Source: Squalus acanthias (lineage: Eukaryota). From it: 64,000 bases of DNA. The first letter of the stretch is position 1. Every line of letters starts with the position of its first letter. The notes beneath the pieces were generated by a model. It was not told where the DNA came from. It saw nothing but the letters and a program-made list of their open reading frames with translations, and did not search any database. Shown here in pieces: positions 7,539 to 32,800 of the stretch. The stretch lies in the NCBI GenBank assembly GCA_030390025.1, contig CM059431.1:143904001-143968000 (forward strand). The letters run 5' to 3'. A program made the translations under genes and the position numbers.

Positions 7539-8444
7539 TTAGTTTTTCATTTTTTTAACCAATATCAGAATCAATATCCAAGGAGATTTCACCACCTTCT
7601 TCAGCTCTTCCCTGAATTTAGTTTGTGTAGCTGCATAAATGCAAGTGTTTGTACAGGAACTCAAATACATGAGCATAGATCCGGTTAGAGTGGCGATCAA
7701 TGCAGGAGATGTATAATCGGGTCGGTGATGCACGGCCAGGTTGATAACTATAGAATTCACGGCAGATGTCAGCCACTACAATACAAAACTGCCCGATAGT
7801 GAACAGTAAAATTATGGATTTCCTTCTGTTTTCCTTCTCTGGATCGCTCTGATTCTCACTACTGTGACCCCGGAGTCCCCTGCGGGCTCTACTGGCAACT
7901 AAAATACGTTTGACTGTCAAACAATTAAACAGTAATATCAAAACAAAAGGAAGACATGGGTTTAAAATACTTTGTAAGCGGTTGTAAGCTACACCTGCAG
8001 GCGATGTATAAAAGGCCGCAATGGGGCGGAATCCCCAGGGAACATTGTTGCTTATTTGTTTGCGTTGAAAGGCAAACCAAAATGGGATGTTCTCTAAATA
8101 AACCAGGACAGAGACCGTTGTTATAACCGAGGCCGCAGTTCTCACTGTGCAATACTTCGTTTTAAACTTCTGACAACATATAGCTACAAATCGGTCAAAT
8201 GTGAAGGAGACGGTAAACTACACCGACATATCCAGGTTGGTACAAGACATGTACATCATGAACTTACAAACGGCAGTGTAGGACAGGAATGAATATGGGA
8301 AGTGATGACTCAAAATGTGATATACGATTACATTGATGATCATGACCAGTAGATCTGCTGTTGCCATGGCCACCATGTAGAGAGAGATACATTTGGAAAT
8401 TCCGCATTTTCCTCTGGAGAGTATCACCATTGTCAACAGGTTCG
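7539..8444 (-). pseudogene. GPR139-like class A GPCR, exon 2; disabled
   Basis: ANLLTMVILSRGKCGISKCISLYMVAMATADLLV...FTFDRFVAIC...SSCTNTCIYAATQTKFREEL. TAG at 8218-8220 where W is expected, plus a frameshift near 7795. Acceptor ttcttacAG ends at 8445. Confidence 0.9.
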
Positions 8445-10439: not shown

Positions 10440-12540
10440 TAGTGATGAGTCTACTCTAATATTACTGGCAATGATTCATCGCTAACATTACTAGTGATGA
10501 CTCCTCTCTAACATTGCTGGCGGTGCCCTACTCTAATATTAATGTTGATGACGCTACGCTGACATTAACGGTGGTGATACTGTTCTACCGTTACTGTTGG
10601 TGATTATACTCTAACAGTACCGCTGGTAACTCAACCCAAGAAACACTGGAGACGGCTCACTCTAACATTATTGCTTGTAATCTTAATCTAATATTACTGG
10701 TGGTGACCCTACTCTAATATTTCAGGTGGTGACTCTATTACCACCTTACTGGTGTTGACCCTACTCTAACATTACTGGTGGTGAGTCTACTCTAACATTA
10801 CTGTTGGTAACTCTACTCTAACATTAATGATGGTGGCTCTACTCTAACATTACTGTTGGTAACTCAACTCTAACATTACTGTTGGTGACTCTACTCTAAC
10901 ATTACTGTTGGTGACCCTGCGCTAACATTGCTGGTGGGGAACCAACTCTAACATTACTGCTGGTGAGCGTACATTAACTTTACTGGCAGTGACTCTAATG
11001 TAATATTACTACTGGTGACTGTACTCTAATTATAGGGGTGATGACTATACTCTAACATAATTGTGGTGACCTTACTCAAACATTACTGGTGGTGACCCTA
11101 CTCTAACATTACTGGCGGTGACTATACTCTAAGATTACTGGTGGTGACCCTACTCTAACATTACTGGCGGTGGCCACACCCTCATATTAATAGTGGTGAC
11201 TCTACTCTAACATAACTGGTGGTGACCCTACTCTAACATTAATGGTGGTGACTCTACTCTAACATTACTGGTGGTGACCCTGCTCTAACATTAATAGTGG
11301 TGACTCTACTCTAACATTACTGGTGGTGACCCTAATCTAACATTACTAATGGTTACCCTACTCTAACATTAATGGTGGTGACTCTACTCTAACCTTAATG
11401 GTGGTGAATCTACCCTAACATTACCGGTAGCGACTCGGCTCGAACATTACTGGTGGTGACTGTACTCTAACATTACTGGTGGTGACCCTACTCTAACATT
11501 AATGGTGGTGACTCTACTCTAACCTTAATGGTGGTGAATCTACTCTAACATTACCGGTAGTGACACGGCTCGAACATTACTGGTGATGACTGTACTCTAA
11601 CATTACTGGTGGTGACTCTACTCTAACATTACTGGTGATGACCCAACTCTAACATTACTGGTTGTGACCCTACTCTAACATTATTGTTGGTGACCGTACT
11701 TTAACATTACTAGTGGTGACCCTACTCTATCATTACTGGAGGTGACTCTACTCTAACATTACTGGTTGTGTTTCTACTCTAACATTACTGGTGAGGACTC
11801 TACTCTAACATTACTGGTGGTGACCCTACTCTTACATTAATGTTGGTGGATCTGCTCTAACATTACTGGTGGTGACCCTAATCTAACATTAATGGTGGTG
11901 ACTCTACTCTGACATTACTGGTGGTGACCCTTCTCTTACATTAATGTTGGTGACACTACTCTAACATTACTGGTGGTGACCCTGCTCTAACTTTACTGGT
12001 AGTGAACCAACTGTAACAGTACTGGTGGTGACCGTACACTAACTTTACTGGTAGTGGCTCTACTGTAGCATTACTGGTTGTGGCTGTACTGTAACATTAC
12101 TGCAGTGACCCTACTCTAACTTTACTGGAGGTGAACCAATTATAACATTACTGTTGGTGACGCTACTCTAACATTACTGGCGGTGACCCTACTCTAACCT
12201 AACTGGAGGTGAACTAACACTAACATTACTGGCGTTGACCGTACATTAACTTTACTGGTAGTGACCCCACTGTAACATTACTGGTGATGACTCTACTCTA
12301 AAATGACTGCTGGTGACTCTACTCTAACATTACTGGCAGTGACCCTACTCTAACATTGCTTCTGGTGACTATATTCTCATGTCATTGGTGATGACCTTAA
12401 TCTAGCATTACTTGTGGTGACCGAACAGTAACATTACCGATGGCGAGTCTACACTATCAGTACTGGTGTTCAGTCAACACTAACATTTTTGGTGGTAACC
12501 CTATTCTATCATTATTCTTGATGACTATACACTAACATTA
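10440..12540. repeat. 26-bp minisatellite
   Basis: Unit ctactctaacattactggtggtgacy repeated over ~2.1 kb; more degenerate at the edges. Confidence 0.95.
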
Positions 12541-12574: not shown

Positions 12575-12762
12575 TACATAAGATCATAAGAATTAGAAAC
12601 AGGAGTCAAAGAGTCATAGAGTCATATTCATAGTCCCTTACGGTACAGATGGATGCCATTCGGCCCATCGAGTCTGTGCCTGTCTCTCTGCAGAGCAATT
12701 CAGTCAGTACGATTCCCCCGCTCTATCCTCGTAGCCCTGCAAGTTTATTTTCCTCAAGTTTA
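12575..12762 (-). mobile_element. CR1 LINE 3' tail/UTR (left half of the LINE split by the provirus)
   Basis: agagtcatagagtcat tail and gccattcggcccatcgag 3' UTR motif; the sequence resumes at 24845. Confidence 0.8.
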
Positions 12763-14712
12763 TGTAAGGAGTATCTTAAGTGGGGTCAGCCTCCAGTTTC
12801 TGACACAGTGAGCGGTTCGAATCACTGCAACACCCCTCCGGTTCCTAGACTTTGGGCTTATTTAGGGGTTGTGAACAAAATTGCAGTAAACAGGTTCTGA
12901 TGAAAGAAATTTACTTTATTAAAAGAAAAAAAAGGTAACAAACTTGAAACACACTTATTACTTAAACACAGATTCGGGAAACACACGGTACAAGCGAGGG
13001 AAATGACAATATATCAAACAAAACCTTATCCCTCCCAAAGATCCCACTATCTGGCTAGGTTTTTGGTTTCAGGATATCAGGGATAATGCTCACCAACGAA
13101 TCCTTGACAGGATATTAGAGTCTTTTGTTTGAAAGGACTCCGTCAGGCCCTTGGTGCTGCGAGGTGTCTGATGGCCACTGCGGCAGTCGCCCTGGTTCCT
13201 TCTTGCTTTGGCCTTCTTCCTCGTGGCTTGGGTAAGTTTTGCTGGAGCAGGGAGAGAGCTCTGTCCGCATCGCCAGTCAGTCCAAAAAGAGAGAGCGAGA
13301 TTATGGCACAGGCTTTCAAATTATACCATTTCTTTTTCGCGCTCAAAAACCCCTTACTAAAACGAATTCCTTTTTGAATGTAAATGACTTTTGCTTCGTC
13401 CAATTGTCTAGTTTTAGGCGGGCTTGCCAGTTCCGATGGTTTTTGCTTAGTGTTAATCGCTTTCCGATTTAAACACCGCCTTATCTACGCGCCAAATCTC
13501 CACCTATTGTTCTTCTGTTGGCGGGCTTTTAAATCTGTTCTCTGGTAACCTGGTTGATTGTTTTTTTTGATTGGATAATGGCTATGAAACTGTGTGATCG
13601 AAGTTATAATGGCCCAGAAATTAAACAGTGAGTGTTCCCGCGGGGGTAAGGATTCCCCACGATATCGCACTCCGCAGCCTACCTTTTTGCTCCGGGCCCA
13701 CACGGACTTTAGTTTGAAAGGCTCCCTCTCTTGGAACCGTGCAGTGCTTGCGTGATCCAGAGACGCAATTAGTTCGTGCGAGCTCTGGGATCACGTGATT
13801 CAGTTAGAGCCAATGGCAGCACACCATCTTTCAGTCATAGATTTGACAGGAAGACCTGTCAAAGCTATGAATACTACACGCCCCCAAAAGAACAGCTAAA
13901 CCTCAATTACATTTTTTAAAAAAGCCATCACATTAATAAAATAAGTATAGTTAAATAAATTAACCACTTTAAACAAAAAATTTAATTTTTGAAAAAATTT
14001 AAAATTCTTTTTAAAAGTTATAAAAATAAACTTACCTTTCTTTAAAGTCTCTAAAAAAGATAAAACTGTTGAAAAAAATTTAAAATAACACTTAATTAAA
14101 TACTTACCTTGTTAAAAGGGGGTCCTACGCCTGCTTTCTTTATGTGTAAAATCTTCACCACTTACCTGCGCGTTCAAAGCTGAAAAAATAACTAAGTGCA
14201 CAGCCTGTAGCGCGCATGCGGTTCACTTAGGAACCACCCTCTTTTGAATTCACGAAGTGCCGGTTTCCCGCGCATGCGCAGTGCATGCAGGAAACCGGCA
14301 ATTGGAGACCTAATACGCGAGAGTACACATTGCGTATTCTCGCGTATTAGGTCTAATTTTCGGGCCATTGTCATTGAATCGTTTTTAGATTTCCAGCATC
14401 TTGTTTGCCCCTGGGGATCCATTATTGAATGTGTTTGTGAGTTTTGCTATTGTTTCAAACAATTCCCAGACAGCTTGATCTGTTCACTGACCGGCCACGC
14501 CCATCGCAACTTGAGTCTGTGAAAAAAATGTCTCTCCCAACAATAAGATTAAAAAAAAATCAGTTTCCTCAGGTTTTCTTCTTGTGATCTTTCTGTTTTT
14601 ACATCAAATCTCTTCACCTGAGGTCCCATCATCCCAAGTTTGTATGAAAAGTCCAAAAATCACTCCCTTTAGGGCTCTGTTCGAGTTTCTGGGGGATTTT
14701 GCGAAGCCTACA
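12763..14712 (-). mobile_element. 3' LTR of provirus copy 2 (with 756-bp insertion)
   Basis: Near-identical to 23647-24844 apart from the insertion at 13611-14366; preceded on the minus strand by PPT aaagtgggaa (14713-14722). Confidence 0.95.
13611..14366. mobile_element. Non-autonomous TIR element (MITE, probably Harbinger-type) inside the 3' LTR
   Basis: Termini ggcccagaaatta...taattttcgggcc; flanked by AAT/ATT; absent from the 5' LTR (empty site gttatattgtca, ~24495-24506). Confidence 0.85.
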
Positions 14713-14994
14713 TTCCCACTTTGATACTAACACTGAATTAGTATCATTAACAGGTGAGCAAAATTTCCGATCCCCGAAAACCAACTTTCCCCTGCATTAC
14801 CTAAACTAAAAACCCAACCATTCATTCCTCTTTTGAAAGTGGTGTTTCAGGTACATACATGTAAGAATCAATCTTTATTTCACACCAAGCACGGAGAGGG
14901 TCCGACACCCCTGCACAGCTTGGAAAAAACACATCATACACATCATAAAAATGACACAACACACATACAATTTTTTTTTATTAAAAGACAAAAT

Positions 14995-17346
14995 TCAAGG
15001 TTCGTTCCATCCCTGGCCATAGCCTTTATTTTGATGCACTTCCCAAGTCCCTTCGTGTCTGGAGCGGAGCTCCCCGTCCCTTCCCCTGCACTTTGTACAC
15101 AGCAGGTAGAGAACTATCCCGAGCTGGCAGACCACCAAAAGATGGGAAGCCATCCTGATCCAGGACGGCACCTCTATATTCTCGAAAATATCCCACCAGG
15201 GTGGAACTACTATATCCAAAATCTCTGCCCCTATTTCAACTGTTTTCTGTTCCAGGGTGTAGAAATGGTTTCGTGAAATCTCTACAGCTTTAAGTAGGAT
15301 GGTAAGATGTTCGGGTAGAGGGGGAATTTTATATCCAAAGTAAGTCACATACTTTTGCAGGTTGGTGATGTTTTCTGTTACAGTGAGGTGAACAGTGGAG
15401 TGTTCAGGAATGGGGACAATCCGTTCCTGGGCCACTTGAACTTCTGCCTTGGGTTTAAAGCAGAAACTGCTGTCACTTACCAGACACCAGAAGTGTCCAT
15501 GCTGGTAGTGGGACGCACCTGTGGTGACACAATATGTCCCACCCCCTATATATGCTACCTATGGGGAAACATGGCCGTCTGCCATCACCTCCATGGTACA
15601 ATTGAAAGGTCGTGCGCCAGCAGCTTTAAACCCGCACTGTGGTTTGGAATAGGCGTTCAAGTGCTGGGGACACAGTATTATGTGTGAACCGCGGCTCCGG
15701 CACCGGAGAGGTCAGTACCTGTCATGGCGTGCTCCCACTTGATGACAAAAGGTGGGACCGCTGTAAAACGGATGTGTGCACCCCCTTGAATGACTTCAAT
15801 GTTCTCCACCCTGTATACCGGTACGGGTCGGGCTGTCCCACTCATAACCGGCTTTCTCACTACTATCCCCATGATAGTGTGATTTGAACGCCCACAATCT
15901 ATTGGGACAGGGTAGGCTTCAGAGGCTAGACGAAATTGGCATGGGCTCAGCGAAGTACTAATCGGGTGGAGGGCTGCAAGGTGCTTGTTGCTGATCCAGG
16001 AGGGGACTAAACCTTGCTTTAAATCCTCCAGGTTGCTACGGCCCTCGCCCAGCAAGCATGCCCCGTACAGCACACACACCTCATTCTGTGCAGCCTGATC
16101 CGATGCATTCCTATCCTCCTGTATGGGTGCATTTACTGTTTTGGCATGCCTTTCCAATTCTGCAATACTTTCCTTTAAATGAACCGTCATAGCTTGGTCC
16201 TCATGTAGCTCTGAGCCTACCACTGTGTTCCATCCTTCAGCTTCTTTCTTAACTGGGTTTTTAAACCATTTATCTGTGTCTGTAATTCCATGTCATCCAG
16301 GCTCTTTATTACAGAGGACCCTGCACTATAGGCAGTGAAGACATCATTCCAGGCTCCCCTTCTTTGTCTACCCGTGCCCATAGGGTTCTCAGGGTGTATT
16401 CTGTATAGCTCTACTTTGTCTATATTGGCAAAATCAAATTCGTAAAATTCCCTAAACATTTCCTTTAGCAGGGCCTGGTACAGCTGCTCCGTTTCCTTAG
16501 GACACCACTCAGGTAAGTATACCTCGGTAAGGTTTAATATTACTGAAGCTACTGCATAGTGTACCCCCTGGTATAGTAGCTTTTCGGTTGGTACTCGGAC
16601 TAACCCATTCCCTGGACCATTGGTGCTGGTAGGGCACTTTTCTTCCAGGGTTTTCGCTACCTGGGTCGTGGGTAGGGGCTTTCGAGTGTGTGCCACGAGT
16701 TCAGAGGCATTAACTGGGACCGGAATGTGTGGGACCACGCACCCATGCAGGCTAGAATCCCACCCTATCCCCTCCCCGGCATCTTGCCATTGGCTGGAGA
16801 AGATGATGGATACCCCTGTGGGGCAGGCTTCCTCTGATCCCCACATACAAACATAGACTCCCTGTTCCGACTCCCACCACTTATTCCAGCAAACACTAAC
16901 TCCTCCTTGGGTCCCTGTGATTGTCCGGTTGGTGTCGTTCCCTAATCTTTCCCAGTCGGCTGTATGGTCCCCTGCGTCCCTGCTCAGCTTCCTGAGCCAA
17001 CACCACCTATTCAAGGGAATTCGTCCCTTACAGGTAAGGCACACACGCTTCCCCTCGGTGACACTGACCCTTGTGGCAACGACCTGTATTCTGGGGCATG
17101 GGAGGGAGGCCTTCCCGTACGTGAACCCGGGCTGGTTGTAGTATTTAGTAGAGTTGGACCCCAGCCACCCTGGCCACCTTCCCTCGTGGAAGTAGATGGC
17201 GAGCTCCTTCACTCCCCGCTCGCCACCCCTGCGTTGACGACTGGTGCTCTCACTCCTGAGCACCCATAGATGTGGGAGTCCTCCACGTCACCTCGGTCAC
17301 CGATGCTCACCCCTACCAGGGCGAGCAGGAGCAGAAACCTTGTCAT
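14995..17346 (-). pseudogene. env: env glycoprotein (signal peptide, Ig-like module, furin site, heptad repeat, Cys-rich region, TM); frameshifted
   Basis: ATG at 17346 gives MTRFLLLLALVGVSIG. ORF pieces 16217-17263, 15678-16223 and 14995-15435. RQRR|GAWNDVFTAYSAGSSV at 16358-16369; DLSGC..ILCPQ..CGF..NCTMEV..YCVTT..FCF; PPWWDIF followed by a hydrophobic TM. Confidence 0.85.
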
Positions 17347-17359
17347 CCCGAAGTCGTTT

Positions 17360-17382
17360 CTGTAGGGGCACACACAAAACAT
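17360..17382 (-). promoter_or_regulatory. Putative env splice acceptor
   Basis: Minus strand gttttgtgtgtgcccctacAG lies 13 nt upstream of the signal-peptide ATG. Confidence 0.6.
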
Positions 17383-17919
17383 ATATCCACTTCCCAGAAA
17401 GGTTCTCTGGCTGGATAATTAATCAAGCCCTTCAACTTAAAAAAAAAACTCTACAAACAACTAAACTAATGATAACCATAACCACCAAAACTGCAATTAC
17501 TTAAAACCGGAAATTCTGTACATTTGCCCCCCGTCTCCGGACGGCCAGGTTAAATCCTGTTTAGTCTCTGCCTTATGTGGCCTCTGGATGGCTTGTACAC
17601 CTGGGTGTAGTGCGGCCTGTACCGCCGGACCCAGAAGGCCTTCCTCAAAACCGCTGGGGGTATCTTAACATCCCAGCTGCGTCCTGTACTGCAGCACACT
17701 ACCCCCTTTTGTGTGGCTGCAGCACCCTCGTTCATATCTGTGGGCTCCTCCCAGCCTGAGGCTGCAGGCGGGGGACACTTCTCTCTCTCTTCTTCCAGTA
17801 CTACCTCTCCTATGAAAACCTCACTGCTGGAGACTATAGGCTGGGAATCCCCAACTTTAGAACGCTCCCTGCTCTTGGGCGCTCTTTTTCGGGTTGTAAC
17901 CCTCTTTGGGTGGGACCCT

Positions 17920-20900
17920 CTAAACAGATACACCTGTGGCCACAGTAGCCTTTGCTGTGGTGTGCGGGGAGACCTTCTTAGGGCTCTGGCCACTGGGGGT
18001 GTGCTTGAGTCCCACATAATCGGTGGAGTGACCTCTCCTGTGAGACAACACACTGCCCTCTCGCTGCAGCTTGTACGTCTGCCACAGCTGCGGCTGGCTG
18101 CGGATTTCTATCTTGGGGCCATTCAGCTTTGGCGGTTGTTCCCTTTTAGGTTTAAATAGTTTGCATTGGTTGATGTGAAACCACTTTGTACGGCGGGGCA
18201 TCTTTATGGCATAGACCATGGGGCTTGCCTTGTCTACAATGTTGTAGGGCCCCATGTACAATGGTTCGAAACTCCCTACCCGGGCAAAATTTCTCACCAT
18301 GACCTGATCTCCAACCTCCCACTCGTGGTGCTTGCGGGTTTCCAGCAGCAATGGCTTACCCCGATGCTGTTTTCCCATGTTACTCGCAGCCTGCCAGTGG
18401 ACCTGTTTAAGGTGGTCCAACAGATTGCTGACGAATCTGTCCCGGTTCAACTCCCTGAGCTGCCCTTCCGTGAGCACCGGGGCTAGCACATGGGTGGGGT
18501 CCGCATAATCCTGCCAGTCATGAGCTGGTGTGGGGAATACCCCGTGCTTTTTCACTGGCTGGCCCGGATCCCCATTAGAACCAACGGTAAGGCTTCTATC
18601 CACTTTTTGGGTGAGTTTCCCATCTCCTTTCGCAGCCTTTCCTTGATGGTACGGTTTAAACGCTCCACAATCCCTGATGACTGTGGGTTGTGGGCGACGT
18701 GCCATTTCCCTTCTATGCCGAGTACCCTGAGGGTCTCTTGCATGACCTGCCCAGTAAAGTGACTCCCCTGGTCTGACTCCACATACTGTGGAAGCCCCCA
18801 CCGTGAGAACACTACCCTGACCAGAATCCTGGCTGTACCCAAAGCGGTAGCTGTTCGACATGGAAAAGCTTCCACCCACTTTGAGAACACATCCACCAGG
18901 ACTAGGCAGTATTTGTAGCCTCGCTGAGCGGTGGGTAGGGGCCCGATGTAGTCGACCTGGATCGACTGCCATGGTCCCTCTACCCTCCTGATGTGTCCCA
19001 TATATACCTTCCTTTTCTGGGGGTCAGGGTTGTTGGCAGCACACACCAGACAGCCTGCACAGAACTCGCGGACATCCTCCCTCAGTCCTGGCCACCATCC
19101 TGCCTGTTCCACCCGCTGCCAGGTGGTCTCAGGCCCGGGATGCCCCGCTCCTGGTCCCGCATGGGCCAGTTGGAGGAATTCCCTTCGGTGCTGCTGCGGC
19201 ACTACCTATTGTTCCCCCCTGAATAGCGTGCCTTCTTTGTGGGTGATGGCTGCTGCGCCGTATGGGCCCTCTACCTTCTCTCCTCTAGCCAGCGTTTCCA
19301 GGACAGTTTTTAGGATGGGATCCTGTGCCTGGACCGTCTTTAGGTCCGGGGTCAATGCTACCCCTGCACTCCGTTGGGTCCCTCCTCTACCTCTGATTGC
19401 TGCACCGGGTTTGATCCATATGGATCCCACAACGTGCCTGTACTGGCGCCCTCTTTGGCCAGAATGTCGGCTTGGTGATTGCCCTCTGCGCGGGGCTCTA
19501 ACTTGGAATGTGCCTTCACCTTTTGGATGTAGACCCTACCTTCCTCCCTGACTGCCCTCATGATTTTCTCCAACAGAGGCTTGATGGCCAGGCGTCTCCC
19601 ATCAGCGGAGGTGTATCCACGACGGGACCAGATGGCCAGGTACTCTGTACACGAATTGCATGTGAACACGCTGTCGGAGCAAATAATGTATGGGGTAGGG
19701 AATTCCTCGGGGTGTGTGACTACATACACCACCGCAGACAGTTCAGCCTGCTGGGCACTCATGGTGCTGGGGAGCTTGATTGCCAGAGCAATGCCTGTCT
19801 CTGGGTCATAAATCCCACACCCTGTGAGTCGTTTTCCAGCTGATGCTGTGCTTGAACCGTCCACATATATTTCGCGGCCTGTGGGGTGTATCCCACCTCG
19901 CAAACCTATGTTGACTTCCCATACACCTTCAACCGAACACCGGTGGGCTGTCCCTGAGTAAATCATGTTAGCTGCGAGCTTTGGCTCGCAGAGACCTTTT
20001 ACCCTCAGATCCATTTGTGAGAGAAGCAGGGTCCAGCGAGCAATGCGGGCATTGCTCACTGTCCCATCATTAATTCTCCCATCCAAGAGCATCTGGGTGG
20101 GCGTGTGGTGAGTGAGGAGTGTGATGGGAGAGGTGCCTGTGAAGACCAATGATCTTTTCACAGCCCAGTGAGTGGCTAGGAGGTGCCTCTCACAGTTGGA
20201 GTAGCTCCTCTCCACATCAGTGAGTATTCTGGAGGAGTAAACAGCTGGTCTCAGCTTGCCATGCCTCTCTTGGAGCAGTACTGCACTCAGACTGTCCCCA
20301 CTGGCTGCTACCTCCAGAAAAAAACTCTTTCCCTCCATCAATGGCCCCTAGAGCCGGAGCGGTCTGCAGATCTCTCTTGAGTTTCACAAAGGCAGCCTCG
20401 CAACCCTCATCCAAAACCCACTCCCCTCCCTTGTGTAGGAGTCGGAGCAGAGGGGCTGCTGTGGCTGCGTAATCCTCAATGAAATCTCTGCAGTACCCAG
20501 TTAGCCCTAGAAAAGACCTTACTCCTGTAACTTTGTTGGGGGCTGGTAACTCCTGAACTGCTTCCCTTCTAGCTTTGTCAATGGTCCTCTCCCCTGCTCG
20601 CACAGCCAGGCCCAGGAATTTAACATCCCGCTGGCCAATCTGTGCCTTCTTGGGGTTTACTTTAAAGCCTTCTTGCTTGAGCAGTTCCAGCAGTTCTGCC
20701 AGAAGGGGACCATGTTCCTCTCCCTCATCGGTAAAGAGGAGTAGGTCGTCCACATACTGGACCAGCTGATGGGGCCTGCTGAAGCCCATCAAGCAATTCG
20801 CCATACATTGGTGAAAAATGCTTGGGCTGTTGTGGAAATCCTGGGGCAGACAGTTCCATGTGTACTGTGGGCCTTTAAATGTAAAGGCGAACTTGTACTG

Positions 20901-21820
20901 ATCCTCTCTCCTTAGAGGGATGGACCAGAACCAGTTGGAAATATCCAGCACTGTAAAGATATTCGCAGATGCTGGGATACTTCCAATGAGGTCGGCTACG
21001 GCTGCAACCGTGGGGGCACAGGCGGGGATGTTTCGGTTGAGTACTCGATAGTCCACTGTGGCCGTCCAGGAGTTGTCTGGTTTTCTAACCGGCCACAGTG
21101 GGGAGTTCACGTGGGTGACTATAGGTCTCAATACCCCCTGCTTGAGTAAAGAAGTCAAAGCCGTTTCCAAGTCTGTCTCAGCTTCCCTGGGGAAGTTATA
21201 CTGCTTTTGTGGGCGGTTCATGGGGTCCCCACTTACACTAACCTCGACCCCGGTTACCCTCCCACAGTCGTGCTTGTGAGTGGCAAATGCTGCGAGGTTT
21301 TCCTGCACAAATTCCTGGTACTCCATTGGAGTGTTACTGACCATGAGTTCGAGGTCGTAACCCTCCTTTGGTTTTACTTTGCACAAGGTCCCCTTGCCTT
21401 GTGCCTCCGGGATGACTGCTACATCAGTACCTTTTGGGTACATGCTCCCCATAGACAGTGGTTCCTTAAATCCACTAAAATCCTGTGGCCTGTGATAAAA
21501 TCGGCCCCCAGGATCCCCTGCCCTTCTTGCTCCCACTTCATTAGGACACAGGTCCACTTGGTGTGGAGCGTTCCCAAATGAATGGAAAGCGGGATGGAGA
21601 ATGAGCCAGCCTGCTCGTTACCTGTGAATCCCACTAGGCTGTACGGGACCCCGTTAGACAGAGGTGAAGTGGCTGCGTTATCTGAATAAATGAGGGTGCT
21701 CGAAGCTCCTGTGTCTAACAGATAGGTCCCTTCTACCTTTTCTACCTCCATCTTAACATGCGGTCTCTTCCAGGCATCATACTCGACGGGACACAGGTAG
21801 ACCGGCTGTGCTAGCTCCAG
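17920..21820 (-). pseudogene. pol: pol: protease, RT, degenerate RNase H (tether), RNase H, integrase; frameshifted
   Basis: PR LLDTGAS...GILGADF; RT WPVRK, VLDISN, LPQDFHNSP, YVDDLL; tether LEVAAS/CERHLLA/THH; RH YVDGSS/AELSAV/CSDS/NHQAD; IN H-H-C-C, VDYIGP, SDQG, GIVER, GPY. Confidence 0.92.
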
Positions 21821-23644
21821 TCATGCCTCTGGGTTGGGTGGGGCAGATGGGATCAGAGAGCCAGTGGCTGTAGCCACCTTCCCTGGGCCATCAAACAGGT
21901 CTATGCTGGCCGCTACTATTGTGTCCAGTGTGGGGGAACAGGTCGGTGCCTCAACTTTTGGGGCAGGAGTTGGTGACGTCTTTGCTAGGCTATCCTTCCA
22001 GGGATTCCTACTGTCCTTTCTCCAGTGCCCAGTCTTCCCGCACCCGAAGCAGCTACGCTTCGTGTCGGAAGGTTTACCACCTTCCTGGTGCCACTCCTTC
22101 TTATCCTGGCTGGGCTTTATCTCATGCACCTTCCCTTTCGGTGGGGTGTCTTCTGCTCCCCTACCGTTCCGGTAGGGTAGTGTCAGTTGCCTGACCACTG
22201 CCTCCTCGGTGACCCGGGGATCTCTTGTGTCAAACCAAAGCTCAGACTTGGCTTTTACTCGTGGCAAGCTGTTTGCCACTAGGCTACGGACCAAGTGGGC
22301 CAGCTCGTCCCTGTTCAGGTTAGCCCGGTCGAGAGCCCCATTACAAGCACCCCTGTACACCGGCCACAGCCTGTCTGCGAAAGCCTGTGGCATCTCCCCT
22401 GCGAGCTGCACTGTTTTCTCCACCCGGGAGAAAGGACTTCCCTCATTCATTCCCATGGCCTCTAATACTTCCTCCCTTACGGCAGCATACCCGGTCTGTC
22501 CTCTCTTGCTCTCAGCAGAGAGTGTCTGGTAGAAATTGCCATCTCATGAGAACAGGAGCAATTTTGCCATTTCGGCATCGTCACAATCGTTTATGGCTGC
22601 TGATTGTTCCACCTCCATGAAGTGGACTGAGGGGTCTTCCTTTTGGGTAAGTTTACTCAGGTGGCTTACCATAGCTCTAAGCTGTTGTGTACCGTGGGGA
22701 GCCAAGAACTGACTTTCAAGGGGTCCCTGACCTCCACCACCGGCGGGCGGGCCGAATTTTTGCTGTCGTGCTGGGCACATTCGTCCTGGCTCCGACTTCT
22801 CCTGCATCGGTTCGCCCCCCTCTCCCTGCTGCCAGACCGAGTCAAAACTCGGCGCCACAGGTGCTGGTGTGCACTCCCTGTCAGCCTCACAGATTGTCTG
22901 CACCTCCTGCTGCCTAACCAAGCTTCTCCTTGGCGCCACAGGTGGTGTTCTAACAGTCTCCCCCTGCTCTTCCAGGTCTGCCTGGGCCGCACCCGGACTT
23001 ATCCGGCACAGCATGCCTTTCGTCTTGGACAGAGCAAGGTTCAGACTCTCAATCTGCTTCTGACAGGGGCCGTGGTCCCCTACCTCAAACGCCGTTGTAC
23101 TGGCTACTCTATAGGCTGCCTGAACATCGTTTAACTTCTCTCTGAGTTCCCGTAATTGCTTTGCAAGGCGGGTGTTCTCTTCCCGCAATGCCAGTTCACT
23201 ACTTTTGGCCTCGGTGGCCTGACACTCGAGGTATCACTTACTGGCACGGTGTTCCTCCAGCATCTGTGACTGTTCCTGATCTTTTGTGCCGAGCTCTGCT
23301 AACAACCTATCCCCTGCTATAGCACTGGCACGGGACAGTTGGCTTTCTTCCGTTAGCTCTTCTGTGAGAGCATGAATGAGCTTCCCCATAAGCTGCATTT
23401 GTTTCTGGGAGCAGACCAACCATATGGCTTTCTCCACAGACTTATTGTATTCCTTGCTCTCAGTCCATGCAGCTGCAGCGTCCATAGGACGTTCAGCATG
23501 CAACAGCCTGAGGACCCATTTCTTGGTGTTATTTACTTTTTTATATACATAGGATGACATCCTCTCTTCCATTTTTGTTCTCTCCTCAAAACCAGCATTT
23601 ACTGCTTCACAACCCTTTCGCCAAAGTCCTGCCGCGGTCGCCAT
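21821..23644 (-). pseudogene. gag: gag: N-terminal coiled coil, capsid-like region, zinc knuckle; two internal TGA stops
   Basis: ORFs 23234-23644, 22544-23188 and 21821-22456 share one frame; heptad-rich REENTRLAKQLRELREKL; knuckle CFGCGKTGHWRKDS with the last Cys replaced by Ser. Confidence 0.88.
23626..23643 (-). promoter_or_regulatory. Primer-binding site complementary to tRNA-Arg(TCG)
   Basis: Plus strand gtcctgccgcggtcgcca equals the 3' 18 nt (with CCA) of vertebrate tRNA-Arg-TCG as I recall it; 3 nt from the 5' LTR. Confidence 0.85.
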
Positions 23645-23646
23645 TC

Positions 23647-24844
23647 TGTAAGGAGTATCTTAAGTGGGGTCAGCCTTCGCTTTCTGACACAGTGAGGGGT
23701 TCGAATCACTTCAACACCCCTCCGGTTCCTAGACTTTGGGCTTATTTAGGAGTTGTGAACAAAATTGCAGTAAACAGGTTCTGATGAAAGAAATTTACTT
23801 TATTAAAAGAAAAAAAAGGTAACAAACTTGAAACACACTTATTACTTAAACACAGATTCGGGAAACACACGGTACAAGCGAGAGAAATGACAATATATCA
23901 AACAAAACCTTATCCCTCCCAAAGATCCCACTATCTGGCTAGGTTTTTGGTTTCAGGATATCAGGGATAATGCTCACCAACGAATCCTTGACAGGATATT
24001 AGAGTCTTTTGTTTAAAAGGACTCCGTCAGGCCCTTGGTGCTGCGAGGTGTCTGATGGCCACTGCGGCAGTCGCTCTGGTTTCTTCTTGCGCGCTGGTCT
24101 TCTGGCCTTCTTCCTTGTGGCTTGGGTAAGTTTTGCTGGAGCAGGGACAGAGCTGTGTCCGCGTCGCCAGTCAGTCCGAAAAGAGAGAGAGATTATGGCA
24201 CAGGCTTTCAAATTATACCGTTTCTTTTTCGCGCTCAAAAACCCCTTACTAAAACGAATTCCTTTTTGAATGTAAATGACCCTTGCTTCGTCCAATTGTC
24301 TAGTTTTAGGCGGGCTTGCCAGTTCCGATGGTTTTTGCTTAGTGTTAATCGCTTTCCGATTTAAACACCGCCTTATCTACGCGCCAAATCTCCACCTATT
24401 GTTCTTCTGTTGGCGGGCTTTTAAATCTGTTCTCTGGTAACCTGGTTGATTGGTTTTTTTGATTGGATAATGGCTATGAAACTGTGTGATCGAAGTTATA
24501 TTGTCATTGAATCGTTTTTAGATTTCCAGCATCTTGTTTGCCACTGGGGATCCATATTTGAATGTGTTTGTGAGTTTTGCTATTGTCTCAAACAATTCCC
24601 AGACAGCTTGATCTGTTCACTGACCGGCCACGCCCCTCGCAGCTTGTGTCTGTGAAAAAAATGTCTCTCCCAACAATAAGATTAAAAAAAAATCAGTTTC
24701 CTCAGGATTTCTACTTGTGATCTTTAGGTTTTTACATCAAATCACTTCACTGAGGTCCCATCAACCCAAGGTTGTATGAAAAGTCCAAAAATCACTCCCT
24801 TTAGGGCTCTGTTCGAGTTTCTGGAGGATTTTGAGAAGCCTACA
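23647..24844 (-). mobile_element. 5' LTR of provirus copy 2 (1198 bp)
   Basis: TGTA...TACA termini; direct repeat of 12763-14712. Confidence 0.95.
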
Positions 24845-26496: not shown

Positions 26497-29400
26497 ATAG
26501 AGTCATAGATTTATACAGCACAGAAAGAGGTCCTTCCGCCCATCGTGTCCGCGACGGCCATCAAGCTCTATCTATTCTAATCCCATTTTCCAGCACTTGG
26601 TCCGTAGTCTTGTATGCTATGACGTTTGAAGTGTTCATCTAAATGCTTCTTGAATGTTGTGAGGCTTCCTGCCTCTATCACCCTTTCAGGCAGTGAGTTC
26701 CAGATTTCAACCACCGTCTGGGTGAAAAAGTGTTTCCTTAAATCCCCTCAAAACCTCCTGCCCATGACCTTGAAACTATGCCCCCTGGTTATTGACCCCT
26801 CCATTAAGGGGAAAAGTTCATTTCTATCTAACCTATTTATGCGACTCATAATTTTGTACACCTCCATCAGGTCCCCTCTCAGCCTTCTCTGCTCTAAGGA
26901 AAACAACCCCAGCCTGTTCAGTCTCTCTTCATAGCTGAAGCGCTCCAGCCCAGGTAACATCCTGGTGAATCTCCTCTGCACCCTCTCCAAAGCAATCACA
27001 TCCTTCCTATAGGGTGGCGACCAGAACTGCACACAGTATTCCAGCTTTGGCCTAAGTAACGTTTTGTACAGCTACATCAAAAGCTCTCTGCTCTTATATT
27101 ATATGCCTCGGCTAATGAAGGCAAGTATCCCATATGCCCTTTTAACCACCTTATCTACCTGTCCTGCTGCCTTCAGGGATCTATGTACATGCACACCAAG
27201 GTCCCTCTGATCCTCTGTCCTTCCTAGGGTCCTACCATTCATTGTGTATTCCCTTGCCATGTTAGTCCTCCCAAAATGCATCACCTCACACTTTTCAGGC
27301 TTAAATTCCATTTGCCACTGTTCTGCCCATCTGACTATATCGTCCTGTAGCCCGAGGCTTCCCTCCTCGCTACTTACCACTCCACCAATTCTTGTGTCAT
27401 CTGCGAACTTACTGATCATACCTCCTACATTCATATCTACACTACAAACAGCAAAGGACCAAGCACCGATCCCTGCGGTACACCACTGGACACAGGCTTC
27501 CAGTCACAAAAACAACCTTCGACCATCATCCTCTGCCTCCTGCCACTAAGCCAATTGTGGATCCAATGTGCCAAATAGCCGTGGATCCCATGGGCTCTTA
27601 CCTTCTTGACCAGTCTCCCATGCGGGACTTTGTCAAAAGCCTTACTGAAGTCCATGTATACTGCATCAACTGCACTACCCTCATCCACACACCTAGTCAC
27701 CCCCTCGAAAAATTCAATGAAACTAGTGAGACATGATCTCCCCCTGACAAAGCCATGCTGACTATCCTTGATTAATCCTTGCCTCTCCAATTGGAGACTA
27801 TTTCTGTCCCTCAGAATTTTTCCAATTATTTCCCTACCACTGATGATAGGCTCACTCGCCTGTAATTCCCTGGATTATCCCTAGTACCCTTCTTGAATAA
27901 TGGTACTACGTTAGCTGTCCCCCAGTCCTCTGGCACCTCCCCTGTGGCCAGAGAGGTTCTTAAAATTTGTGTCAGAGCCCCTGCAATCTCCTCCCTTGCC
28001 TCACACAGCAGCCTGGGATACATCTCGTCTGTGCCTGGGGACTTGTCCCATTTGAAGCCCACTAAAACCGCTTGTAGCTCCTCCCTCTCAATGCTAATTT
28101 GTTCAAGTATATCACAATCCCCCTGCCTGATTTATATGCCTACATCATCCTTCTCCATAGTGAACACAGACGCAAAATATTCAATTAAAACCTCACCCAC
28201 ATCTTCCCGCTCTACACACAGATTGCCACTTTGGTCCCTAATGGGCCCTACTCTTCCCCTGTATATCCTCTTACCCGTAATATACTTATAAAGCACCTTG
28301 GGATTTTCCTTTATTTTGCATGCCAGTGTGTTTTCATGCCCCCTCTTCGCTCTCCTAATTCCTTTTTTAAGTACCCCCATGCACTTTCTATTCTCCTCTA
28401 GGGCTTCCACTGTTTTGAGTCATTTGTATCTGCCAGAAGCCTACCTTCTTTTCCTAACCCATTCTTTTATATCCCTTGACATCCAGGGTTCGCTGGGCTT
28501 GTTGGTCCCACCCTTGACATTTACGGGAACATGTTGGCATTGTACTCTCTCTATTTCCTTTCTGAAAGACTCCCTCTGCTCTGATTTGGATTTTCCTACA
28601 AGTAGCTGATCCCAATCCACTTTGGCCAGATCCTGCCTTAACATATTAAAATAGGCCTTCCCCCAATTTAGAACCTTTATTTCCGGTCCATCTTTGTCCT
28701 TTTCCATGACTACCTTAAATCTCACCGAATTATGGTCACTGTCGCCAACATGCTCTCCTATTGACAGTCCTACCACTTGCCTGGCTACATTCCCTAGAAT
28801 TAGGTCGAGTACCGCCCCCTCTCTTGTACGACTTTCTACATGCTGGCTCAAAAAGCTCTCCTGGATGCACTTTATGAATTCTGCACCCTCTAAGCCTTTC
28901 AGTCTCTGTCTATCCCATTTAGTATTGGGGAAAATGAAATCCCCTATTTTATAACCCTATTATTTCTACAGTTCTCTGAGATGTGCCTACATATCTGTTC
29001 CTCTATCTCCCCCTGACGGCTTGGGGGCCTATATTACACTCCCAGCCAAGTGCTTGCCCCCTTTTTGTTTTTAAGTTCTACACATATGGCCTCATTAGAG
29101 GAAGCTGCTGAGATATCATCCCTCCTTATAGCTGTAATTGTCTCCTTGATTAATATTGCGACACCCCCTCCTCTTTTACACCCCCATCTGTCTCGCCTGA
29201 AGATACTATACCCCGAAATATTGAGCTGCCAATCCTGCCCCTCCCTCAACCATGTCTCTGTGATAGCAACAATATCATACTCCCATGTGTTTATCAACAG
29301 CTTCAATTCATCTGGCTTACTCGCAAGAATCCTTGCATTAAAATAAGTGCCATCCAGCCTTGCAATATTCCCTTGTGCCGTTTCATACTTGCACTGCCTT

Positions 29401-29874
29401 CCAGGCTTACTTGATTTTTCCTCTATATTTGGCTGTGCATCACCCCCTACTATAGCTCCAATCCGTATCCCATCCCCCTGCCAAGTTAGTTTAACCCCCT
29501 CCCCACCCCCCCAACAGTACTAGCAAACCTTTCCGCAAGGATGTTGGTCCTGTTCCTGTTCAGGTGCAACCCGTTCAACTTGTACAGGTCCCACCTTCCC
29601 CCGAAGCAGCCGCAGTGATCCAGGAAACTAAAGCCCTCCCTCCTGCTCCAGCTCATTAGCCACGCATTCATCTGCTCTATCCCCCTATTGCTGTACTCAC
29701 TAGCACGTGGCACCGGGAGTAATCCCGAGATTACAACATTTGAGGTCCTGCTTTTTAATCTGCTACCTACCTCCCTAAATTCTTGTTGCAGGACCTCATC
29801 CCGCTTTCTACCCATGTCGTTGATACAAATGTAACCACGACCTCTGAGTGTTCGCCCTCCCCCTTCAGAATGCC
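26497..29874 (-). mobile_element. CR1 LINE: partial ORF1 (SGNH/esterase-like) plus ORF2 (EN+RT) and 3' tail; decayed
   Basis: ORF1 VVISGLLPVPRA...GLHLNR; EN DIVAITETW, LDLIL, SDHN; RT QHGFVRGRSC, GVPQGSVLGP, KFADD; tail at ~26497. A second short CR1 tail lies at 26406-26496. Confidence 0.92.
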
Positions 29875-32800
29875 TGACATGAATCGTGTCATTCATGTGT
29901 AAATGACTTATGAAATAATGCTGGGCGGCCTGCTGGTGGTGCTGTCCAGGGAGAGTATAAATACTCGGGCATGGGGCCAGCTTGCTCAGGACATTCTTTA
30001 ACAGGAACTAGTGAAGGACACAACTAGATCTCCATGTTGAAAAACAGTTGATTAGAGCCTTGTTTAATACTCAGACCAAGTGCCGAGTAGTTTTCTTACG
30101 TCAATTTAATCAACTGAACCTGCTCCACGCTCTGAGTGATTTAGGGAACACACAGCTAGGACTCAAACTGTAGAAGGGAACCAGATGTAGTAATCAATCC
30201 ATCATGTAGACACTACTCAGACCCGCCCGTCTTGACCTGGACCCGAATTCACCTACAGCTGCTAAGGTATGGAAACACTGGTATCGTACCTTCAGCAACT
30301 TCCTCAAGGAGTGTGGTGAGAATGTTCCTAATGAGTTACGAATGCTTGCCAATTATGTATCCCCTCATTTGTTTGACTATATCGAAGACTGTGTAGACTA
30401 TGATTCTGCTATCCAAACACTACAGCAACTATATGCTAAGGCCCCAAACGAAATTTTTGCTCGTCACCTACTGGCCACAACTCGACAACAACCCACGGTA
30501 TCACTTGACGAATTCCTTCAAGAGCTTCGCAGGCTCAGCAAAGGTTGTAACCTCAAAGCTGTCTCAGCTGAGCAGTACCGGGAGGAATTAATTCGTGACG
30601 CTTTTGTTAATGGAATTGCTTCTCCCCTCAGACACCAGCGTCTGTTGGAGAATAAAACCCTCGGGTTACAAGCTGCCTATAACCAGGCATATTCTCCGGA
30701 CATAGCTCAAGAAAACTCAGATGCCTATTTTTTAACACGTGCACGGGCTGCTGCGACCACTTTTAGTGACTCCTCAGGTAAGCCTCAGGCGGAAGCACTC
30801 ACTGATGACGACCCTACCCTAGTGGCATCTTGGCAATCTAAAACAAAGTGTTTCTTCTGTGGAGGTGCATTCCACTATAGGAAATTTTGTCCTGCTCATA
30901 ATGCAACCTGCAATCATTGCAGTAAGAAAGGTCACCTTTCTAAGGTCTGCCGGTCAGGAGCCTCGATTAGTGTTGCAGCTGCTTTCTATAAAACTGCTCC
31001 TCCTCCCATCACAGCTGTTTTTCCCCAAAGCCTGTCCCATGCAGCCACGAGGGTTTCGGTGAATGTACACATTTTGAGTGCATTAATCGACTCATGTAGC
31101 TCTGAAAGCTTCATTAGTGAGCGGCGGTCAGTAAGTTAAAACTGCGTATTTACCTCTCGGACAGGGAAATTGCAATGGCTCTGATGACACTGACCAACAA
31201 CTCTTCCGGCTTTTGTCTTGTCAACCATATTCTCAATGATCGCACATATTTCTCCACCCGGCTCGGGATGCTCAAAGACCTATGCAGTGATGTGCTCCTG
31301 GGACAGGATTTCCAGAAACAACACACAAGACTCACTTTCGAGTTTGGAGGGTCAAAGCCAGAGCTCACTATTTCCAAAGTACTGTTTTGTGTGCTTTCGG
31401 CAGCTTCGCTCGATGAGCCCTCCTTGTTTGCTAATCTTTACCCCTGATGTAAGCCCATAGTCACTAAATCACGACGTTTCAGCCAAGATGAACTATCCTT
31501 TATCGAGGCAGAGATCGTTCGCCTTCTAGCTGACGGTATCATTGAGCCATGTTCATCTCCCTGGCGGGCTCAAGTCGTCGTTGTTAAAAATCCTCTGAAG
31601 CAACACATGAAAAGTCTTTGCATCGATTACTCGCAAACTATTAACCAGTATACCGAGCTGGATGCCTACCCACTACCACGCATCGATGACATGGTCAATC
31701 ACCTTGCCAACTACAGGGTATTTTCAACTTTTGACTTGAAGAGCGCATACCATCAAGTACCGTTAAATGATCTGACAAAAAGTATACGGCTTTTGAGGCT
31801 TTACCAGTTTTGTCGCCTTCCATTTGGGGTCACCAATGGGGTGGCTGTCTTCCAACGGGCAATGGATAGCCTAGTCAAACAGGAGAACTTATACGGACAC
31901 TTTTCCATATCTGGATAATATTACCATTGCTGGTCATGACCAGAAGGAGCACGATGCCAACCTCCAGAAATGTCTTGACGTTCTCTAATCGTCACAACTT
32001 AACCTTAACCTTAACCGCCTGTTATGCGAAGTGGATACTACACTTTTCCGACAAGATCCAGCCCCTGCTTCACGCAAAGTAATTTCCGTTGGAGGCAATG
32101 GCTATTTCAGCTTTTGACCTCCTCAAGCAACAACTGGAAAAAGCCACGCTTCATTCCATCAATGAAAACCTTCCTTTCGTGGTCGAGTGCAATGCATCGG
32201 AGGTGGCGATCTCGGCTAGCTTGAATCAAGGCGGTCGACCCGTTGCATTTCTGTCCAGAACCTTGCAGGGTAGCGAGATCCATTATCGTCCTGTCGAGAA
32301 TGAGGCTATGGCTATCATCGAAGCATTATGTAAATGGAGTCATTTTCTCACTCGTCGCCATTTCATGCTCAGTGCTCTGTGGCCGTTATGCTCGATAAAC
32401 GGAAACGCACAAAGGTCAAGAATAACAAAATACAGCTCTGGAGGATGGAATTGGCCGCCTTTGGCTACACCATAAATTATCGACCCGGCAAAGAGAATGT
32501 GGCCCTGGATACACTGACTCGTGCATTCTGCTCTTCCATGTCAACTTCGACTCTTGCAGATCATCATACTGACTTGTGCCATCCTGGCGTTATCCGTATG
32601 TTGCACTTTGTGTGATCTAAAAATCTCCCATTTTCTACAGAAGACGTGAAAAGAACATGCTCCACTTGTAGAATTTGCTCCGAATTAAAACTGCAATTCT
32701 TCCAAACGTCGGCTGGCTCACTCATACACGCTACACAGCCTATGCAGTGACTCAGCATTTACTTTAAAGGGCCATTGCCTTCCTCAACGCGAAACACCTA

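Follow-up and report, generated by a model that had tools for sequence, protein, structure and literature searches.

The DNA discussed here, called the window, is a stretch of 64,000 nucleotides of Squalus acanthias (GenBank assembly GCA_030390025.1, contig CM059431.1, positions 143,904,001 to 143,968,000 of the forward strand), and all positions given below are counted within it. It carries on the minus strand, at 12763–24844, an endogenous retrovirus (ERV), which an earlier note, made from the sequence alone, had described as a complete lokiretrovirus-like provirus. The element is very probably a defective provirus of an abundant elasmobranch ERV family, whose reverse transcriptase (RT) lies on the side of the canonical retroviruses, whose envelope protein (Env) is of the F type and which is not a lokiretrovirus.

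Structure of the Provirus

The ends of the provirus are direct repeats and its limits are exact. The paired long terminal repeats (LTRs), the transfer RNA (tRNA) primer binding site, gag, pol and the separate env that the earlier note had reported were all located, in the minus-strand order gag, in-frame TGA, protease, RT, tether, RNase H, integrase and then env. This anatomy stands, with exact coordinates, and to it are to be added the minus-strand orientation, the heavy damage and the absence of a target-site duplication, which had gone unmentioned. From the 5' to the 3' end of the provirus the features are as follows, with the basis of each in brackets.

23647–24844, minus strand: 5' LTR, 1198 bp (blastn of the two ends, sequence reading, end motifs)
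23626–23643, minus strand: primer binding site TGGCGACCGCGGCAGGAC, 3 nt past the 5' LTR
21821–23590, minus strand: gag frame (frame map against related copies, translation)
21419–21820, minus strand: protease, with DTGAS at 21701–21715 (Pfam gag-asp_proteas, 5.6e-07; RVP, 2e-04)
20217–21617, minus strand: RT frame, with YVDD at 20745–20756 (Pfam RVT_1, 8.1e-29; PDB phmmer; RT trees)
19358–20347, minus strand: tether and complete RNase H (Pfam RT_RNaseH, 6.6e-19, aa 7–111; RNase_H, 4.9e-20, aa 159–301)
17920–19205, minus strand: integrase, with HHCC zinc domain, DDE core and SH3-like C-terminal domain, in two overlapping frames (Pfam, frame map)
17550–18107, minus strand: extension at the C-terminal end of the pol frame, in which no domain was recognised (matches residues 1253–1419 of the pol frame of a related copy)
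14995–17412, minus strand: env, in three or four frames (tblastn of the 832-aa env frame of a related copy, 4 pieces)
14713–14722, minus strand: polypurine tract AAAGTGGGAA, directly upstream of the 3' LTR and abutting it
12763–14712, minus strand: 3' LTR, 1.2 kb plus a 758-bp insertion (blastn, LTR alignment)
13609–14366, no strand assigned: the insertion, a miniature inverted-repeat transposable element (MITE) of 758 bp, resembling a non-autonomous DNA transposon, within the 3' LTR (missing from the 5' LTR)

By blastn, positions 12760–13608 and 23644–24500 are 96.3% identical over 859, positions 14367–14712 and 24500–24844 are 95.1% identical over 346, and both LTRs have the termini TGTAGG...CCTTACA. 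The MITE has imperfect and short terminal inverted repeats (GGCCCAGAAATTA / TAATTTTCGGGCC) and belongs to a high-copy family with 4030 first-look candidates in the same genome, 40 of which were scored to give 42 near-full-length matches at 92–100% identity, the copy in the window included (81 rows in all, counting short secondary matches). It is a later insertion into the 3' LTR. With the insertion excluded, the two LTRs differ at 37 of 1191 aligned columns (Kimura two-parameter distance, 0.032), which corresponds roughly to 16 million years at 1e-9 per site per year and, equally roughly, to 72 million years at the slow shark rate assumed by Han (PMC4422223). No target-site duplication is present, the provirus being flanked by GACAC and TAAAC.

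The primer binding site is complementary at 18 of 18 positions to the 3' end plus CCA of a tRNA-Arg(TCG) of the same genome, so named because ARAGORN called this tRNA at both of the two loci scanned; reverse transcription would therewith be primed by tRNA-Arg(TCG), presumably along the usual retroviral route. The 3' part of the tRNA, as a pattern of 20 nt, has 433 exact matches genome-wide, many of them in 1.6-kb tandem arrays. On one contig, at about 38.99–41.88 Mb, the tRNA-Arg(TCG) genes stand in extended tandem arrays whose unit, repeated every 1.6 kb or so, also contains a tRNA-Ser(GCT).

Gag, Pol and the Condition of This Copy

The true start of gag is uncertain because the first ATG overlaps the primer binding site. 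The frame shifts once, near 23386, and is interrupted by TGA in two places (23234–23236 and 22544–22546), and a CCHC-like knuckle, in which Ser replaces the last Cys, lies at 22010–22051. The knuckle corresponds to the only Pfam match of Gag, zf-CCHC at a sub-threshold E value of 0.0088; Pfam otherwise gave nothing for Gag, a PDB sequence search gave no matches, and the Atlas features gave only leads below 0.9, namely Ty3-type gag and foamy Gag clusters at 0.85–0.86. A crude heptad test did not confirm the coiled-coil Gag that had been proposed: its result fell short of significance, 12 of 200 shuffles having reached at least the same score.

The terminator of gag is the TGA at 21821–21823, after which pol continues in the same frame with the protease directly following the stop codon. 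This is a read-through layout, identical in a related copy, and Gag-Pol would be produced through read-through of the in-frame TGA. Besides protease, RT and integrase, Pol would then supply two RNase H domains, the tether being dead and the other live. The YVDD of the RT, which had been noticed before, was found at 20745–20756, and the neighbouring RT motif reads LPQDFHNSP in the window copy and LPQGFHNSP in related copies. Likewise, the tandem of a dead and a live RNase H was recovered as Pfam RT_RNaseH followed by RNase_H: the tether, a degenerate Ty3-type RNase H, is without the Asp residues of the Ty3-type RNase H motifs, and the second RNase H keeps what we take to be the D-E-D-D set. The integrase does lie downstream of the RNase H, where Integrase_H2C2 (1.5e-18), rve (3.4e-16) and SH3_Tf2-1 (1e-04) were matched.

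Compared with the open frames of related copies, the reading frame of the window copy shifts once in gag, five times in pol and three times in env, and gag also contains two TGA stops. It is a dead, defective copy and has been so for a long time. Its pieces are 83–98% identical to the related copies, except for one env leader piece at 61%.

Abundance and Host Range of the Family

The ERV family is very abundant in this genome, where first-look candidates number 19,585 for RT and 8,227 for env; all of those scored (91 of 91 for RT and 114 of 114 for env) match strongly, and the best rows are 76–100% identical. Furthermore, an exhaustive phmmer search of 1.84 billion representative proteins gave 49 Env relatives; of the 21 looked up, 17 carry names, 14 from elasmobranchs (Pristiophorus, Rhinoraja, Chiloscyllium, Mustelus, Heterodontus, Scyliorhinus and Rhincodon) and three from frogs (Pelodytes, Mantella and Xenopus). 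The close named relatives of the family proteins, at 56–82% identity, all belong to sharks or a skate, which bears out the earlier suggestion of a shark-type host. The pairing of sharks with frogs is common to the Pol and the Env relatives.

Side products of these searches are gene models of sharks that contain Env fragments. Residues 364–489 of Heterodontus francisci "fbxo15 isoform X3" are a fragment of the Env family within a chimeric gene model, and this fragment has a weak Baculo_F match (E 0.0011), another hint of F-type ancestry. Other such models are named ZFP2-like, Niban-like and cadherin-related.

Reverse Transcriptase Phylogeny

Lokiretroviruses are defined by RT phylogeny as the sister group of, and outside, all known retroviruses (PMC7947760, section 6), so an RT tree was built by a careful maximum likelihood (ML) analysis under LG+C20+F+G4, with 58 rows and 325 columns and with the RT cut by motif anchors. 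The canonical references were isolate retrovirus genomes found in IMG/VR by degenerate RT-motif patterns and labelled by their gag and env Pfam matches: five foamy viruses (Gag_spuma, Foamy_virus_ENV), four gammaretroviruses (Gag_p30, TLV_coat), deltaretroviruses, betaretroviruses, an alpharetrovirus, lentiviruses, a 12,708-nt genome of epsilon size and the snakehead retrovirus (SnRV), the last being recognised by RT words in the alignment of the lokiretrovirus paper. For the lokiretroviruses (Loki), an RT motif from the PMC7947760 supplement was back-translated and metagenome contigs were scanned with it, whereby three contigs matched. Two of these encode a Pol with RVT_1, tether, RNase_H and integrase and an Env that matches PF00523 (E 1.2e-5 and 2.2e-3) and is nearly identical in text to a published stretch of Loki Env; with the dual RNase H, the PF00523 match and the published Env text together, the contigs are therefore natural lokiretroviruses. 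One lokiretrovirus contig from the metagenome assemblies, L084, has gag, pol (1745 aa) and env each in an open frame without interruption.

The backbone of the tree is as published, with Gypsy (12 rows, support 100/100), Loki (100/99) and the canonical retroviruses (43 rows, 100/100) as separate clades, and the window RT is inside the canonical clade. There it belongs to a clade of nine rows (91/92), made up of the window, two close copies, Xenopus tropicalis, three other frogs, Latimeria and one further record, the frog members being "NYNRIN-like" proteins. When this clade and Loki were forced together, the approximately unbiased (AU) test rejected the arrangement (dlnL 29.07, p-AU 0.0026). 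A clade that unites the gamma- and epsilon-type with the alpha-, beta-, delta- and lentiviral references (24 rows, 99/97) leaves the family of the window outside. The motifs point the same way: the family and the frog and coelacanth proteins have LPQG[FL]HNSP...QYVDDLLL, the published Loki rows compared (teleost, frog, coelacanth and lamprey) have PFGY...YVDDI[LM], and the nearest nine Pol matches by word search have the canonical RT motifs.

These results do not agree with the lokiretrovirus membership that the earlier note had inferred, and to speak of a lokiretrovirus in sharks is an error under the defining RT criterion. A true lokiretrovirus with a new chondrichthyan host class is thus hardly credible as an explanation. 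It would account for the dual RNase H, a feature which canonical retroviruses share, for the layout of gag, in-frame stop and pol, which is common to Loki element L084, and for the Env, integrase and tether comparisons described below, in which Loki scores highest among the outside references; against it stand the position of the RT in the canonical clade with the rejection of the forced alternative, and the canonical RT motifs of the element and of its nearest nine Pol matches. Moreover, in the screen of Wang and Han, which took in Callorhinchus, two Chiloscyllium species and Rhincodon, none of the three Orectolobiformes was scored as Loki-positive (PMC7947760 supplement), yet relatives of the Env occur in two of these species, Chiloscyllium punctatum and Rhincodon typus, which fits a family outside their RT criterion.

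Membership in Ty3/Gypsy, its env-bearing errantiviruses included, was also considered and rejected, since Gypsy forms its own clade and has a single RNase H, versus the dual RNase H present here. The element has the features of canonical Retroviridae, that is, LTRs, a tRNA primer binding site, a polypurine tract, gag-pro-pol-env, a dual RNase H and an RT placed among theirs. The family is a canonical-side lineage of class III-like ERVs to which frog and coelacanth elements also belong. It would lie on the Retroviridae side of the split between lokiretroviruses and retroviruses, possibly near the base, from which the foamy viruses and SnRV arise as well. Supports at this base of the canonical clade are below 80, which makes it a polytomy; ML resolves it as the group of the window first, then the foamy viruses and then SnRV, with supports of 50–76. 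The earlier note had proposed a phylogeny of RT and integrase as its check: grouping among the canonical retroviruses was obtained, and grouping inside the spuma or epsilon clades could not be shown, so that the refuting outcome named in the note came about only in part.

Integrase and Tether

The integrase and tether were compared by phmmer with the domains of a related copy as query. The integrase scored 282–329 bits against frog proteins, 264 against Loki, 182–184 against Astyanax and Latimeria, 169 against mammalian NYNRIN, 142–143 against SnRV, 125–148 against gammaretroviruses and 95–129 against foamy viruses. The tether scored 64–66 bits against Loki, at most 49 against Gypsy and 12 against one gammaretrovirus, with no match in the foamy viruses, and the RT is about equally distant from all groups by score. 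Loki is thus the top-scoring outside reference for both integrase and tether. A wider set of Pol proteins with a dual RNase H, outside the rows of the RT tree, comes from teleosts, frogs and one bird record and has integrases 37–42% identical and canonical RT motifs, with MPQGLHNSP in a teleost group.

An old recombination, in which a canonical RT lineage of class III type took its integrase, its tether and/or its env from a lokiretrovirus-like element, would explain these uneven domain scores (integrase, 264 bits for Loki versus 95–184 for other outside references; tether, 64–66 for Loki), and repeated replacement of RNase H and integrase in retroviruses was described by Wang and Han (PMC7947760, sections 8 and 9), who also placed the Loki integrase with CGIN1/NYNRIN (section 9). 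Nevertheless, such a mosaic origin is rather improbable, because the frog, coelacanth and shark members all have the same score pattern and because an integrase tree has the order of the weakly supported RT resolution. A quick integrase tree of 51 rows and 380 columns, with SH-aLRT support only, has a split at 97 between Gypsy, Loki and the group of the window on one side and the other retroviruses on the other, and the group is not sister to Loki. Rooted on Gypsy, the tree gives Loki, then a ladder of frogs, coelacanth and shark, and then foamy viruses with SnRV and the rest. The weak ML order of the RT is the same, so that purely vertical descent, with an early branch that changed slowly, would account for both trees and no recombination is needed.

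The family would have kept three Loki-like traits: its Env is of the F type, its integrase resembles those of Loki and NYNRIN, and its tether has degraded only weakly.

Envelope Protein

Since env of the window is in pieces, the uninterrupted 832-aa frame of a related copy was analysed. The tblastn pieces of the window are 83–94% identical to it, with one leader piece at 61%, and in the window itself the furin-type site RQRR is at 16358–16369, the start of the fusion subunit at 16337–16357 and the membrane anchor at 15097–15153. The 832-aa frame begins with a leader and a surface part of about 370 aa, followed by RQRR and a Gly/Ser-rich stretch leading into a long heptad helix; the helix is followed by some 270 aa rich in Cys, then by another heptad and by the membrane anchor. 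There is neither a CX6CC nor an LQNRR motif, both of which are found in a gammaretroviral control of murine leukaemia virus size, so that the earlier statement of an envelope unlike the gamma- and betaretroviral transmembrane proteins proved right.

The fold was predicted with AlphaFold2. A model from the single sequence was unusable (mean predicted local distance difference test, pLDDT, 33.8), and a model from 30 natural relatives, calculated as a monomer, reached a pLDDT of 70.8. With this model Foldseek gave as best match the F protein of human parainfluenza virus 3 (E 2.2e-10) among 225 matches at E<=1e-3, and among the matches listed all are F proteins of paramyxoviruses or pneumoviruses. 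VIA-align gave a Z score of 12.0 and a root-mean-square deviation of 4.9 A over 292 residues with the post-fusion F of Nipah virus, and the best 50 matches listed are all F proteins. Foamy Env chains are not among the listed Foldseek and VIA-align matches, which is no evidence against relatedness. A PDB phmmer search with the sequence gave only coiled-coil noise.

Profile comparisons extend this to retroviral envelopes. By hhalign, the env family matches Loki Env at 97.6% (E 3e-12) over 262 columns, which begin at the fusion peptide and extend to the Cys-rich domain, and foamy virus Env at 93.5% (E 2e-7) over 210 columns, versus 3.6% for a gamma-type Env control; Loki Env and foamy Env compared directly give 0.1%, the Loki alignment consisting of two rows only. 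In a PDB profile search with the env family, foamy virus gp130 (8rm1_D) came first, at E 0.0053. The earlier guess of an Env like the F protein of Mononegavirales was right, by the fold match to F and the profile match to Loki Env. The Env is, as judged from the predicted fold and the profile alignments, an F-type (class Ib) fusion protein that links Loki Env and foamy Env by sequence, and it has the marks of that class: the F-type fold, a furin site, a fusion peptide, a long heptad helix, a C-terminal heptad and an anchor.

This protein would be made separately from Gag-Pol and cleaved by furin at RQRR, with fusion machinery of the paramyxovirus and pneumovirus F fold (class Ib). Its large N-terminal surface part would have a possible Ig-like domain, for which the hints are weak: a match to Ig_3 (E 0.085), one of a relative to V-set (0.045) and the name of a UniRef entry. 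The profile match to Loki Env, better than that to foamy Env, and the top scores of integrase and tether against Loki among outside references are what a lokiretrovirus would show, and the size of the N-terminal part of Env is against it, about 370 aa here and about 110 aa in Loki Env.

Relation to Known Systems

Among the closest known systems are the foamy-like endogenous retroviruses (FLERVs) CmiFLERV and XtrFLERV, ERV-Spuma.0-Sca of a catshark (PMC10699275) and the clade III ERVs. In the accessible text of Aiewsakun and Katzourakis (2017, PMC5512871) the shark FLERVs group with those of frogs, pol being the sole gene detected, and the supplements of that paper contain no RT sequences that match the RT words of the family. 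Cartilaginous fish have a high ERV copy number, mostly of clade III (PMC11089739). The family resembles these systems in the pairing of shark and frog hosts, found also among its nearest Pol and Env relatives, in the high copy number in cartilaginous fish and in a gag and an env without recognisable domains. The difference is that in the accessible text only pol was detected in CmiFLERV and XtrFLERV, whereas the family shows a whole genome plan and an F-type Env. The family is probably identical to a group so far characterised by pol only, the shark and frog ERVs called "foamy-like" or class III. A genome plan, with gag, env, primer binding site and read-through, is thus provided for the abundant class III-like ERVs of cartilaginous fish, which in the accessible literature are known mainly from pol.

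A genuine foamy-like virus, that is, an ordinary FLERV inside Spumaretrovirinae or sister to it, is on balance unlikely, although published trees put shark and frog elements among the foamy-like ERVs (PMC5512871), the first PDB match of the Env profile is foamy gp130, hhalign gives 93.5% to foamy Env and a joint clade with the foamy viruses has a p-AU of 0.073. The foamy gp130 has an F-like core with a large receptor-binding insertion upstream of the furin site (PMC11468914; PDB 8RM0/8RM1), and the family Env follows the same general plan, with remote homology in the Cys-rich domain of the fusion subunit; it differs in having no PF03408 match, and the expression layout of gag and pol is unlike that of foamy viruses. 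All five foamy references checked have Gag_spuma and Foamy_virus_ENV, and the family matches neither. The absence of Cys-His boxes and the expression of Pol from its own mRNA characterise foamy viruses, while here a CCHC-like knuckle is present in Gag and pol is in frame after the gag stop. In addition, about 280 nt separate env from the 3' LTR, in which no open reading frame (ORF) fits and there is no room for genes of the bel/tas type, and the ML tree does not join the family and the foamy viruses.

With the lokiretroviruses (Wang and Han 2020, PMC7947760) the family shares the order LTR-gag-pol-env, the tether plus RNase H, an F-like Env with a furin site and a profile-alignable region of fusion peptide and heptad (97.6%), an integrase with H2C2, rve and an SH3-like C-terminus at high similarity, and a gag stop followed by an in-frame pol. 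It differs in its RT clade and motifs, in the much larger surface part of its Env, in the lack of a direct PF00523 match, which their Env has (1e-5, 2e-3), and in that no smc-like gene is seen. Among exogenous viruses SnRV scores highest by RT (204 bits); it too arises from the polytomy at the base of the canonical clade and shares the motif LDISNGFWSI..QY.FAFTF..LPQGFH.SP.IFHQ. The tree does not unite SnRV with the family, the SnRV integrase scores only the 142–143 bits given above, and the SnRV Env has no significant similarity.

Wang and Han (2020) detected no similarity of Loki Env to the envelopes of retroviruses and therefore put forward four scenarios for the origin of retroviral env (PMC7947760). 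Fernandez et al. (2024) described foamy virus Env as F-like, the main text leaving lokiretroviruses unmentioned (PMC11468914). In the literature searched, which did not extend to bioRxiv supplements or to unlisted papers that cite the lokiretrovirus study, neither a link between Loki and foamy Env nor an F-type Env in shark and frog ERVs is stated, and the accessible text of PMC11089739 does not report Loki in sharks. An Env of a canonical-side ERV that matches both Loki and foamy Env makes one ancestral F-type Env testable with existing shark and frog sequences.

It is possible, and is put forward tentatively as short of probable, that the lineage of sharks, frogs and coelacanth was the first to branch off on the canonical side and has evolved slowly, linking Loki and foamy Env by sequence. 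If this is true, the ancestor from which lokiretroviruses and Retroviridae both descend already had an F-type Env, an integrase of the Loki/NYNRIN type and a tether that was hardly degraded, and the gamma-type and HIV-type (class Ia) Envs are later replacements.

Several points weigh against reading the element as a defective, canonical-side ERV with an F-type Env. The Loki sample consists of three closely related elements, and published Loki, Odin, CmiFLERV, XtrFLERV and ERV-Spuma.0-Sca sequences stand outside the tree, with a motif comparison by eye at most. A basal placement is not shown, because of the polytomy at the base of the canonical clade, and constraining the family with the foamy viruses costs only 4.51 lnL and is marginally not rejected in a tree that has no FLERV rows. 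The raw similarity of integrase and tether points toward Loki. Pfam on the 832-aa env frame gives only the Ig_3 match, without PF00523 or PF03408. Part of the homology evidence for Pol and Env comes from related copies (L023 and L019), and the elasmobranch host is read from ERV family proteins, not from a host gene.

Neighbouring Features of the Window

A 26-bp satellite of 79 copies occupies 10482–12540 and ends about 220 bp from the 3' LTR of the provirus, 39-bp satellite arrays lie at 52612–60779 (210 copies) and 62092–63369 (33 copies), and further arrays have periods of 21, 51 and 67 bp.

Other mobile elements are also represented. On the minus strand, 3167–3880 is an ORF with DDE_Tnp_4, a transposase of the Harbinger/PIF type (E 1.2e-23), and 27099–30007 is a decayed non-LTR retrotransposon with RVT_1, Exo_endo_phos and GDSL-lipase-like pieces. 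Other retroelement remains, unrelated to the provirus, are at 31448–33275 (plus strand), 34815–35312 and 44313–44834, with RVT_1, RT_RNaseH_2 and rve in separate frames. Finally, an open frame at 7618–8217 on the minus strand has a sub-threshold match to 7tm_1, the rhodopsin family (E 2e-05, 24.6 bits versus a cut-off of 30.5), and may be an exon or a pseudogene of a G-protein-coupled receptor.

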